DNA of 64,000 bases, from assembly GCA_964016885.1 (NCBI GenBank), contig OZ024752.1, forward strand, positions 620,001-684,000, written 5' to 3'. The stretch's first letter is position 1. Every line of letters begins with the position of its first letter. Source of the DNA: Eledone cirrhosa (taxonomy: Eukaryota). Made by a program: the position numbers and the translations under genes. The notes beneath the pieces were generated by a model. It saw nothing but the letters and a program-made list of their open reading frames with translations. It did not search any database and was not told where the DNA came from. Of the stretch, positions 54,285 to 60,360 are shown piece by piece.

Positions 54285-54425
54285 TTTCTTTATTAGCCAC
54301 AAGGGCGCAACAAGAAAGGGGACAATACAAAGACATGCCGGGGATTTTACATACAGTCGTGTAAAAAATATAAAAACAAACAATTTCAACAATCGAAATC
54401 CCCAATAGGGGGGAGGCGCCACAAA
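54285..54425 (-). mobile_element. Tx1-like LINE, short 3' UTR copy D
   Basis: tttctttattagccacaagggcgcaacaagaaagggg...ccccaataggggg matches the 3' ends of copies A and C. TAGA repeats on both sides. Confidence 0.8.
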
Positions 54426-54660
54426 TAGATAGATAGATAGATAGATTTCTTTATTTACCATAAAGGCATAAAAAGAAGGGACAAATACAAAGGGGGAGTT
54501 TACTTATAATCGAGTAAAAAGGGTGTAACATGAAAATAATCGAAAATAACCTCAAAAGGGAGGGGACGTGATGGGGGTTGCACACACCCCCGAAAAAGTG
54601 TGCAATCCTTTGCCCGGGGAGCACATGGAGAAGGTGCTCCCCTCTCCTTTACTTCTTTAC

Positions 54661-57600
54661 CTACAGGATGGTATACAGAGAAGGCCCATTTACACGAGCC
54701 ATTCTCGCCACTATCACCCACCTTTCATAAAACTGCCTGTGGCCAAGCACCTCTCTCTCCATTCTTATCCTTCTTCCGAAGTGATATCGGAAGAAGTAGA
54801 CCAGACTATGGCCAGAGAGGAAGTTGCCTGACCTCAGACCTTTCAATCGTGTCCACCAAACAACCTCTTTCGACATGGCTATTACGCACAGAAAAACCGC
54901 CTTTGCTTCCTTTGTGAAGAGGGGAGGCGGTTTGATTGTCATCACGGACTCGGCGGTCAATTTAATCGGCGTCACCCGCGACAGCAGTCGTTCGGCGTAG
55001 CCCCACAGATCAGCCACGCCCGGACATTGCACCAATGCGTGCGCAACGGTTTCTTCGTGACGCACGCATCTAGGGCAAATCTTTTTTGAGGGATCCCTGC
55101 CCGGGCGCCCGTGTCTGTAGAGCCTCTCTCGAACGGGTAGAGCCCCCCGGTAGCACTGCCAGGCCAGTGACTTCTGGAAGTTGTCCATTGGTCCTGGGCC
55201 GAAAGTCCTACCGAACAGGCTGGCCAGTTCGTCTTCTTCCATGTCCAGCGACTCTCCAAGGGTGTCATCGCCCAGCTAGCCACCAGCCCTCTATAGAATG
55301 ATGAGATGGATTCTCCACCGATGGCCTGGCCCGCTTGCCAGAGAGCCCTGAGCGCCTGAGCACACTCAGTGTGCCAGTCTCCCAGTTTTCCGGATCTTTG
55401 CTTGACCCAGGACTGTAGCTCGGTGAGTGAGACGAGTCTCGGAAAGGCTCGTTTCACGAACGGAGCCCACACCGGTTGACCAGTGAGGAATACCTGTAGG
55501 TGCCGTAGCCTTAATGCGTGCCTACGCATCATCAACCACGGCATCCCCAGCCCTCCTTTCGAAGGTTGTTGGCAGCAGATGGATCTTCTCACCATAGGAG
55601 GGCGCTTCTTCCAAAGAAATTGGAAGAGCATGCGTTCCATGGTGGTGAGTGTTTCCTTAGGGCAAGGCACGACAGTCAGGCAGTAGTAAGTGACGGACGC
55701 TATGTAAATGTTCGCCACCTCCGCCCGGCCTTTTAGGGACAGCTTACACTTGGCCCATTTCTGGGTTAGTGCAAACACCTTGTTCGTAACCTCGTTCCAG
55801 TTCTTTTCCACCTGGAGGTCCGGTACAAACCAGACCCCAAGCAACTTTACCGGGCCCTCCGTCCAGTGTCCGACGACACCGTCAGGAGGCATCGGTCTGC
55901 CTCTCCACGTTCCGAGTTGCAGCCCGATGGATTTTTCCCGGTTCAGTTTCGCTCCTGACAACCTTTCGTACTCCTCCAGTAAGGTACCGATCACCTCGAT
56001 TTCCGAGTCGGTCGATACCATTACTGTTACGTCATCGGCGTAGGCCGACACCGCTTTGCTCAATCCTGGTTCCAGGGGGATATCCTGCAACAACTCCAAC
56101 TTCCTCAGTAAAGGCTCGAGAGTCAATACGTACAGAAGGGAGGAGAGAGGGCACCCCTGTCGAATGGATCGTGTGATTTCGAACGGCTTCGAAAGGTAGC
56201 CGTTCACCTTGATCCTAGAACAGATGTGGTTGCTATGTAAGGCAGTGATCCAGCCTCTGAAAACAGGACCGAAGCCAGCCGCCGCTAGCACCGCATCCAG
56301 GTAACCATGGTCGACCCTATCGAAGGCCTAAGACTGATCCAAGTTGATCAGGGCCCCACCGAAGCCGGGTTTGTTGCCAACCCTCTCTATGATGTATCGC
56401 ATGAGGTGGAGGTTATCGTGAATGGACCTGGATGGGATAGCACATGTCTGCGCATCTCCCACCAGGCCACCCACGACAAGCGCCAACCTCTTTGCTAACA
56501 CCTTGGCCAAAATCTTTAACTCTGTGTTTAGCAGGGTTATGGGCCGAAAATTATTTATACTATCTCCCTTGTTCTCGTCCTTCCTCACCAGCGTGACTAC
56601 GCCCTTGGCTACAGAACAAGGAATTCTCCCGTTCTGCTGCCAATTGCAGTAGACCGCTTCGAGGAGTTCGGAGAAGAAGACCGGCATTGCTAAATAAAGT
56701 TCGTAAGGTATACCATCGAGACCTGGAGATTTGCGTCTGCTGCATTGGCTCAGCGCATCTCCGATCTCATCAGCCGAGATTGGTCCCTCGCAGGACTCTG
56801 CCTCTTCGCTCGAGAGACGCGGCAGGCCGTCGAGGTATGGACCGAAATCCACGCCCCCGCCCGGACCCTCGCCTCCCCCGAACAATCGGGCAAAGTGCCT
56901 TTGAAAGGCCTCGCACATCTGCTTAGGCTCCCGGATCACCCGTCCATCCTCGTCTTGCAACGACCGGATGGTGGATCGATTTCCACTCTTAGCTTCTGTC
57001 ACGCGGGCCCAGCCAACGGCTTTGGCCCCCTCATTACCTAGAGCACGTATTTTACTTCGAATGACGCAGCCTTCGTGCTTTGCATCGAAAAACTGGTTCA
57101 AGGCCGTCCTCGATGCCAGCACTCTGGCCACATCTTCGCTCTTGATTGCCTCTTCTAATTTACCTGTTAATTCTTTCTCGTTTCTATTCCTATCGGCAGC
57201 TAACATCTTGCTATAACTTATTGATTCTGTTCTAATCTCTCTTTTGAGAGATTCCCACCATCGGTTGTTGACGATTGCACCCGTCAACCTCTCCTTAACT
57301 AATCTGCTAATCCGGTTTCTGTAAGTCTCTTTTGCCGGTAAAGACAAATTAAGTTTCCAGTAACCGGGACCCTGTTTATGTGTTTTCTCGAGATTGACTA
57401 CGCAGGTCACTAATTTGTGATCCGTGTAGCCAACCGTGCGCATTTCTGGACAGCTTAATATGTCCCTATCCTTACCTCTGACTAAGAATCTATCTAAGTA
57501 CGATCTAGATTGACCACTGTGGTTTCTCCAAGTCCAGGTAGGCACAGTTGGAAAATCTAGTCGATATCTATCGACCAAGTTAAAACGGTCGAGTAACCCC

Positions 57601-58130: not shown

Positions 58131-60030
58131 CTACCTTTCCGCTTCCCGGGGTTCGGGTTGCACGACTTCCATGGGGTCGGGGGTGTTGGGTGAAGGGGTG
58201 TCTTGTGGTGGTGTGGCGTCGTCAGTGTGTGGTGGGGTTGGGGTGTTTGGAGTTCTGTTGGGGGAGGGGAAGGGGAGGGGGAAAGCTTTTTAGTAGGACG
58301 CGGTTTATGGGTTTGACAGAGGGTGGTCCTACGTCCTCCTTAAAATCCTTTTTTAGTTTTTGGTAGAGGTTCATTGGGATCTTTATTAGTTTTAAATGTG
58401 GGTAGTTTTCTGAAGAAACAAAGTTTACACCTTCGGTTTGTACCGAAGGATTATTGTATATGAGTTCATTTAATTTATTATTGTTTCTGTTGATGTAAGT
58501 ATAGTGTAATGTCTTTTTTTCGGATGGTGTGAGTGTTTCGAAGAGGGGAGGGGCAGGTTTGGTTTTGTTTGTTGCTGGAGGGGTGTTTTGTGTTTTGTTG
58601 GATTGTGTTGACATTTGGGTGGGGGTTGTTTGTCCTTGTGTGTTTTGCACATGTTTTCTTTTTTTCCTTTTAATCTGTCTGAAGGACTCCGTTTCTTCCT
58701 CCGAATTCGTTGGGTTATCTTCAGTGTTGGAGGGAAGAGGTATGTTTGCTGGTAATGTTTCCGTGTTGGTTTTCTTTGTGGGGGAGATGGATGTCACTAT
58801 GTTAGACTGTGTTGTGTGTTGTGTCTGCGGTGGTTGTGTTGTTTTATTGAGTGAGAGGTTGGGTGGGCCTGTATTTTGTTTTGGGGTAATGTGTTGTGAC
58901 TGTTTGTGTTGTGGTGGTGGTGTGGTTTTACTGAGGGACGGGTTGGGTGGGACTGAGTTTTGTTGTTTGTTTATCTGTTGTGGTGGTGGTGGTGGAGCTG
59001 GTGTTGGTAGCAGGGTTTTCTTTTTGTTGAGTTGGGGACAAGCGGCCTTCAGGTGCCCTCTGCCTGCACAGATATGGCAGGACGGCCTTCTCCCCTCCAC
59101 GCTAATGTTTACATACCCGTGGTCCTCTAATAGGATTCTGTCGGGTATTTGGGCGATGCGTTCAGGCTTCATTTGCACTACCAGCTCTATACCTGTTCCA
59201 CTGAACGCATTGCCTGTGGTTTTCCCAATGGAAATCACGTTGTCATTCACTGGATCGATGAAGCCAGCTATGAGCCAGCAGTAGTCCACATCTGGCATCA
59301 TTGCATCCAGCCATATGCGTTGAGTTCTTTTACCCATATAAGATGGATAAAAGGTAAAATTTTTCGAACGAATCGGTGACAAAGCACATTTTTTTGCCGC
59401 CGATTCGTTCTTCATGATAATTGCTAGGCTTCCATACAGTCTGTCTTTTCTTATGAAAGTGGTTTCATTAAGTACTTCTGTGAGTACTGTTTTGATATCT
59501 GCTTGAGAAGGCTGTTCAGGTTTTTTTGTACTGTTGTTGATGGTCCGAAACTTGACCGTTCGGCTTTCAACGTCTTTGGTGAATTCTTGAGGCATTTTTA
59601 CCGATAAAATACCATTCTCTCCTTCACTTATGTATTGTTTGGCGTCTGTGATCCTTCGTGCCACATCTGAAATATTTTCCGGTATATAAGTCAAAGATTT
59701 CTTTGTTTTCTGTGCAAATGAAATCTTGTCGTCTGCTTTGCTTTCTGTTATGGTGTTATTTTCAAATGTTATTTTTGTGTTTGTTGTGTCTTTGTTTGTG
59801 TTATTAGTATTGTCATGCAATTTTTCAAATTTTTTTTTTCCGTTGTTGGAATCCATGTCCAGATTTGTGTTTTCGTCATTTTTTTTCTCCGCAGATTCGT
59901 CTGTTTTTATTTTAATTTTTCCTTCCTTCTCTATGACGTTAGTTGGGAAGGAAGGGGGGACTAAAGCGTGCGAGCTTACAACTCTTACCCCTGTCCCCCC
60001 ACCACTATTTTCGTTCGCTGCGTTTAACAT
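58131..60030 (-). CDS. LINE ORF1 (gag-like, CCHC zinc knuckle, Pro/Thr/Gln-rich tail)
   Basis: CHICAGRGHLKAAC knuckle and a basic KRKKRK patch; ATG at 60030. The annotated frame stops at 58222, but an alternative frame continues PSPNRTPNTP...EAER* to 58131, which suggests a frameshift near 58285. Confidence 0.8.
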
Positions 60031-60256
60031 TTCTGTTAGACGATTGAAATTTTTTTGCCACAAAATTTTTTAAAACAGGTTTTTCACCTCTAGGAGGGGT
60101 AAAGATGAGCTGACCCACCGCCTGACAGTTCAGACGGGGGGTCAAGCTACACAATTGTATCAAAATTAAGTTTGAACTCACAAAATTTCCTCAATAAATT
60201 TGAACAAAACTTCTGCGCGAAGTGAATTACATCCACACTGTAGAACAGACGACATC

Positions 60257-60360
60257 TAGATAGATAGATAGATAGATAGATAGATAGATAGATAGATAGA
60301 TAGATAGATAGATAGATAGATAGATAGATAGATAGATAGATAGATAGATAGATAGATAGA
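60257..60360. repeat. (TAGA)n microsatellite at the LINE 5' junction
   Basis: Directly visible. Confidence 0.97.

Follow-up and report, generated by a model that had tools for sequence, protein, structure and literature searches.

The window analyzed here, a 64,000-nucleotide stretch of contig OZ024752.1 (assembly GCA_964016885.1, positions 620,001 to 684,000 of the forward strand), contains five copies of an L1/Tx1-type long interspersed nuclear element (LINE) that are all followed at their 3′ ends by TCTA repeats and, in four cases, also begin at such repeats. We posit that this LINE family probably inserts preferentially in (TCTA)n by target-primed reverse transcription, with its apurinic/apyrimidinic endonuclease (APE) nicking the TAGA strand; that some form of TCTA preference exists we hold to be highly probable. 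A preliminary description of this DNA had already named (GATA/TAGA)n microsatellites, the same repeat, as the apparent target, and the preference draws support from the comparison of 5′ with 3′ arrays and from the divergence of the subfamilies involved, with the amendment that the copies represent two loci, not five independent sites.

Two stacks of copies among TCTA repeats

The copies are lettered by their 3′ ends (A at 30463, B at 31565, C at 31876, D at 54285, and E at 54446) and all lie on the minus strand; five had been claimed, and a search for the common 3′-end pattern returned five matches in the window, exactly copies A–E, and none in 100 shuffles. Read in element sense, the first stack runs (TCTA)26–E–(TCTA)5–D–2 units, that is, an outermost 5′ array of (TAGA)26 (60257-60362), the apparently full-length, 5811-bp copy E (54446-60256), a (TAGA)5 array separating E from D (54425-54445), the 5′-truncated, 140-bp copy D (54285-54424), and, on the outermost 3′ side, about 2 units of the repeat (54276-54284). 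The second runs (TCTA)10–C–(TCTA)16–[195 nt of A]–B–(TCTA)15–A–degenerate tract: an (AGAT)10 array (32255-32294) forms the outermost 5′ end of the 5′-truncated, 379-bp copy C (31876-32254), which shares a 2-nt microhomology with it, and is followed by a 261-bp duplicate (31615-31875) of 31309-31564 that comprises 195 nt of A plus array, by copy B proper (31565-31614, 50 nt of 3′ end), by a (TAGA)15 array separating B from A (31505-31564), and by the 5′-truncated, 1042-bp copy A (30463-31504), whose outermost 3′ end meets a degenerate AGAT array (30351-30462, 75% matches) that is likely the original target tract.

Evolutionarily, the copies are far from uniform, with identities of 94% between A and C, 86% between A and D, 84% between C and D, 80% between D and E, and 78% for both A/E and C/E. 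Divergence on this scale (78–94% identity) implies separate insertions by several subfamilies into the same tracts, and since neighbors differ by 6–22%, local amplification is excluded, save for the duplicated piece beside B. Separate insertions of diverged subfamilies in the same two tracts favor targeting. The family had also been called young, which holds for copy E relative to its own subfamily and not for the set as a whole.

At the 3′ side, TCTA repeats adjoin all five copies and poly-A none, as the preliminary description had claimed. Four of the five share one register, AATAAAGAAA followed by TCTA, with B carrying one extra A; the 3′ join of A is imperfect and runs into the degenerate 110-bp array, and only ~2 TCTA units follow D. 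The 5′ ends fall at four different truncation points, again as described; the companion claim of repeats at every 5′ end stands for four of the five true 5′ ends and fails for B, which adjoins the duplicate of A. The arrays at which A and D begin serve at the same time as 3′ arrays for B and E, so that an outermost 5′ flank exists for C and E alone. Beyond the 26-unit array of E there is no element, making it a clean non-tail 5′ flank, and the 10-unit array of C is probably another. The outermost 5′ flanks thus carry 26 and 10 perfect units, versus 2 units and a degenerate tract at the outermost 3′ flanks, so that the long repeats lie at the outermost 5′ rather than 3′ ends, the opposite of what a pure tail would predict.

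As background, of the 55,932 positions that lie outside the stacks, 18 begin a TAGA-phase run of 8 nt on the relevant strand (3.2e-4), which gives a chance of ~3e-4 for the 5′ junction of E alone and of ~1e-7 for E and C together. Perfect AGAT-class arrays of at least 22 nt number five in the window, all five at copy junctions, and other arrays are far commoner there (99 AT, 48 ACAT, and 34 AC), with none at an A–E junction. These counts bear on the idea that passive accumulation, recombination between arrays, or an assembly error placed the repeats beside the copies. The window is indeed microsatellite-rich, a local rearrangement might account for the duplication beside B, and passive accumulation is known for Drosophila Waldo-A/B near CA repeats (PMC3812793; for this and the other papers cited, statements refer to the part of the text available). 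Against it, the repeats involved are exclusively of the rare AGAT class, consistently lie on one strand, and directly abut the junction, and a similar tandem joint occurs in a contig of another organism (run X8, below); we regard this idea as very improbable.

Mechanistically, preferential insertion into (TCTA)n could proceed as follows. The APE domain would nick the TAGA-reading strand inside a tract, and the freed 3′ end would prime reverse transcription from the end of the RNA just past AATAAA, probably aided by UCUA repeats that the RNA had acquired by read-through at the donor site. Second-strand cleavage would then duplicate repeat units, leaving target on both sides so that a next copy could land and stacks would build up, and new perfect arrays could subsequently be lengthened by slippage. 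Double insertion at a favored site has been described elsewhere as a route to stacking (10.1101/158386). The same junctions, fixed 3′ register included, are predicted if a loose APE nicks widely and integration follows only where the nick frees a TAGA primer that pairs with a UCUA tail, such that RNA-tail pairing and not the endonuclease sets the target. Repeat tails are used in reverse transcription by other LINEs, including I (TAA) and UnaL2 (TGTAA) (PMC3747384), and nicking by the L1 endonuclease (EN) is looser than L1 integration (PMC1950540). However, a long fixed tail is not evident, with ~2 units at D and an imperfect join at A, and the sister lineage described below has a similar 3′ end that lacks a repeat tail; target choice by pairing is accordingly an explanation that we judge unlikely, and endonuclease-led targeting is the one carried forward here.

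Structure and classification of the element

Copy E serves as the reference. Its ORF1 (open reading frame 1; 58222-60030, minus strand) encodes 602 aa when counted from its first Met (60030), with a core (59026-59565) that consists of a predicted RRM fold followed by one CX2CX4HX4C knuckle. The top structural matches to the predicted fold of this core were RRM domains (Z 7–9 over residues 1–79), and zf-CCHC was found in all ten aligned ORF1 family members (E at most 0.1), the protein encoded in the window itself giving a weak match (E 0.066). ORF2 (54661-58097, minus strand) encodes the APE endonuclease, a reverse transcriptase (RT), and a zf-RVT domain (PF03372, PF00078, and PF13966, respectively), and no RNase H family appeared among the Pfam matches of three ORF2 pieces. 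The APE domain (57378-58097, minus strand) is unbroken and keeps the catalytic residues N10, E39, Y112, D141, N143, T189, D202, D226, and H227; its predicted fold (pLDDT 94.8) has human L1 EN as top fold match (E 5e-19, TM 0.81). The 3′ untranslated region (UTR; 54446-54660, minus strand) ends with AATAAA at 54450-54455 and four further bases, without poly-A, and the 5′ UTR contains a GC-rich stem-loop (60108-60147, minus strand; single-sequence fold z −6.0). Against Rfam, the window, this stem-loop included, gave no match at gathering score. The closest named relative of the element is an Argonauta hians protein with 63% identity, which makes an octopod the likely host.

Two lesions had been reported in ORF2, and two are found: a stop codon (56328-56330) and a single frameshift (within 55270-55283), downstream of which the frame shows third-position bias (76/202 vs 26 and 27). 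The end region of ORF1 shows length variants across sequencing runs, which may point to a third lesion near the end of ORF1. Copies A and E, which are 78% identical, are each shifted by one base in the same 14-nt ORF2 stretch (31299-31312 in A, 55270-55283 in E), where the relatives P0022 and P0186 read through, and in A this stretch falls at the edge of the 256-bp duplication beside B. The shared shift may reflect independent lesions, an assembly error, or a shared state; programmed frameshifting is not supported, no canonical slippery heptamer being apparent by eye at the site.

Taxonomically, two ORFs and an ORF2 with N-terminal APE and central RT place the element in the L1 clade in the broad sense (L1 + Tx1). 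Tx1 elements have a C-terminal zinc-binding domain and are not known to carry RNase H, and ORF2 likewise carries PF13966 without an RNase H family. ORF1s with an RRM and a CCHC knuckle have been called consistent with Tx1 (PMC5203782), and ORF1 has both, a feature that is not exclusive to Tx1. The architecture fits membership in Tx1, as judged from sequence features. In a search of the PDB, ORF2 matched L1 ORF2p at E 1e-22 versus R2 at E 2e-5, a coarse comparison given how few clades have solved structures. Human LINE-1 ORF2p is the best solved relative of the window's ORF2 both by sequence and by APE fold, whereas human LINE-1 has only ~20% APE identity to the element and has a poly-A tail. 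Human LINE-1 ORF1 is also not known to have a CCHC knuckle.

Several LINEs that insert into microsatellites are already known. Waldo and Mino belong to the R1 clade and Dong to R4. They target ACAY, AC, and TAA, respectively (PMC3812793), and thus also insert into simple repeats, with a four-base unit in Waldo, although their units differ from (TCTA)n. Also known are the Tx1 families Kibi, (TC)n, and Koshi, (TTC)n, of teleosts and, near these two, a crocodilian Tx1 group, (TTCC)n/(TTTC)n (PMC4494074), all likewise APE-type LINEs inserting into microsatellites (PMC4494074, PMC3812793), from which the window's element differs in being flanked by (TCTA)n and in its host, likely an octopod. A target-specific Tx1 family has been defined as one with a single sequence type in >20% of flanks genome-wide (PMC4494074); here, TCTA occupies 5/5 of the 3′ flanks and 4/5 of the 5′ flanks, from two loci only.

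With respect to prior records, an annotation of Octopus vulgaris (PMC13282606) lists 13 L1-Tx1 families with recent activity, accounting for 421 insertions, and the window's family may be among them. The available main text of that paper contains no target analysis, with "target" occurring 0 times, and the available text of a cephalopod repeat paper (PMC8967140) names L1-Tx1 without a target analysis. A 2013 review lists, in the part available, ACAY, AC, TC, TTC, and TAA as targets and no GATA (PMC3812793). Our literature searches, which did not extend to Repbase or Dfam, returned no report of a GATA/TAGA-targeting LINE, and a prior record is quite possible. The element is likely a new target variant of the known microsatellite-targeting Tx1-type LINEs, as judged from two loci and one joint outside the window. 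While microsatellite targeting itself is not new, a GATA target, if true, would add a fresh specificity, would fall in a phylum whose two cephalopod repeat papers give no target analysis in the text available, and would imply that octopod GATA microsatellite markers frequently lie next to LINE ends. Practically, the unbroken APE of copy E can be assayed as is.

A sister lineage, copies elsewhere, and the case against targeting

A scan of prokaryote genomes led to G001, a GTDB bin labeled bacterium that holds ~17 contigs of animal DNA (C3–C19; loci L081–L119 and L122–L151), which is contamination; among 49 genomes of the family to which the bin is assigned, relatives of the element were found in G001 alone. 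ORF2 matches in the bin total 78, of which 60 are stop-free and approach the full length of the query; they are arranged as head-to-tail arrays of intact 6.4–6.8-kb units that are >95% identical within arrays. In these arrays, differing 5′ halves are joined to ORF2s that are 91–99% identical, a natural set of LINE-derived arrays. The sister proteins share 40–41% identity with E over APE–RT and have a homologous ORF1 core (22–24% identity), and in an RT tree (FastTree; 170 of 171 rows, G001_L115 being left out, with no named Tx1 among the rows) the sister lineage and the window's element fall in one clade of 13 rows with SH-like support of 99. Database entries looked up for 30 proteins carried no clade names either. 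At the 3′ end the two are similar up to AATAAA. Of 13 loci inspected beyond the window, 7 have a 5′ UTR stem similar to that of E; similar base stems occur in several sister families (sister z −3.6; L088, 4842-4884).

What separates the two lineages is the setting of their arrays. Sister units are divided by spacers of 11–18 nt of non-repeat sequence, and microsatellites stand at none of ten array boundaries (four at 3′, six at 5′), with four free AGAT arrays present in 60 kb of sister flanks. Since sister boundaries do not lie at microsatellites, the link to GATA is specific to the window's branch, and the preference was likely derived in the octopod branch; similarly, because microsatellites are not targeted by the closest relatives for which flanks are available, an origin independent of Kibi/Koshi is plausible. 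One could go further and suppose that the octopod branch of a tandem-stacking lineage independently evolved a previously unrecorded GATA-recognizing APE, and that its subfamilies retained the target through >20% divergence and are actively seeding and extending GATA arrays in the genomes of octopuses, an extended scenario that we offer as possible and somewhat doubtful. If the preference is real, the non-targeting sister lineage would provide a natural pair for locating the switch in specificity, and its stacking outside repeats makes it testable whether endonuclease, pairing of the RNA with the primer, or both set the target.

The sister arrays also lend substance to an explanation with no microsatellite preference at all, in which TCTA would be part of the 3′ end, the copies would stack upon themselves, and the arrays would be tails or duplicated tails lengthened by slippage. 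They are homogeneous, and their spacer recurs at the array's 3′ edge in 4/4 cases; in the window, three of the five long arrays separate one copy from the next, and every one of the five touches an element, as if element-made. The outer flank of C may also be a further 3′ end, as considered below. On the other side, the 26-unit 5′ array of E has no element beyond it and would need a lost copy, A sits in a degenerate tract that looks older than its insertion, and the neighbors in the window belong to different subfamilies, as opposed to the >95% identical units of the sister arrays. Self-stacking without preference consequently strikes us as distinctly unlikely, and insertion into pre-existing TCTA tracts remains the preferred reading.

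Beyond the window and the sister lineage, reads of the family were detected in 4/4 runs from four studies; run X4, possibly derived from the same source as the window, is not counted as independent. Some contigs under other organism labels are close matches to E, with 2 differences in 394 nt and 7 in 848, which places E near the master of its own subfamily. Run X8, from another organism label and study, yielded one contig with a tandem joint between two copies, in which a GA/GATA spacer of 15 nt separates a copy truncated at 54772 from another 3′ end. Close relatives with accompanying DNA were found neither in viral contigs nor, by C-terminal alignment, in metagenome or genome contigs. A broad metagenome scan gave best segments of 21–40% identity among the best 80 of 418 matches, none of which carried at least three TAGA/TCTA units, and these are too distant to bear on the target. 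Separately, among more distant relatives, near-identical ORF2 proteins in Patella caerulea (P0086) and Metynnis hypsauchen (P0172) carry runs of neighboring locus tags, which suggests tandem LINE arrays in limpet and fish.

Several observations weigh against preferential insertion into (TCTA)n. The five copies amount to two stacks, i.e., two loci in the window, with only one clean non-tail 5′ flank, that of E. The flank beyond the array of C (32295-32320) weakly resembles the element's 3′ end, with 58/2000 shuffles scoring as well and 1/500 in a comparison with random window stretches, and it may be another 3′ remnant; no such resemblance was seen in the outer flank of E (152/500), and no ORF2 homology follows the outer flank of C. 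An old, internally deleted fragment, F (10238-10650, approximate, plus strand), has no TCTA flanks, though both its ends are also missing. Stacking is common to the wider group, as the microsatellite-free stacks of the sister lineage show, and in itself does not speak for repeat targeting. Structurally, a β-hairpin segment of the APE is 9 residues long in the window's element and its four closest relatives, versus 11–13 in six sister proteins, and yet human L1 and the distant P0003 also have a 9-residue hairpin, so that this length is not distinctive. For L1, moreover, nicking by EN alone does not account for the choice of integration site (PMC1950540). Lastly, among 24 loose ends listed of ~3180, neither a TAGA run (0/24) nor an element end (0/24) was present; these 24 are not a census and constitute neither support for nor a test of the 5′ flanks.

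Copy B and other features of the window

The 195-nt piece 5′ of copy B matches the 5′ end of A at 194 of 195 bases and shares its breakpoint, and the true 5′ end of B adjoins this piece and not a repeat. We therefore rejected the reading of B as a conventional truncated copy whose 5′ end has a TAGA flank of its own, since that end meets a duplicate of A. Simple tandem duplication of either C or A was rejected as well, as B's own 50 nt differs from C at 5 of 49 positions (Fisher p 0.0014) and from A at 9 of 49. In the simplest reading, B is likely an independent 50-nt insertion with an unusually long target-site duplication of 256 bp, for which the second cut would have fallen 256 bp away, inside copy A.

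Fragment F stops at a short motif that occurs five times in the window and that we take to be part of an octopus short interspersed nuclear element. Just left of D lies a broken transposase-like gene (51845-53931, plus strand) with CxxH and RW motifs, presumably hAT-like, that had no Pfam match and fell in unnamed arthropod clusters of a protein atlas. Between the two stacks, a 7.5-kb repeat (35682-43187) is open in five frames, and its minus-strand frame would encode ~2500 aa of Pro/Thr repeats, which we assume to be mucin-like.

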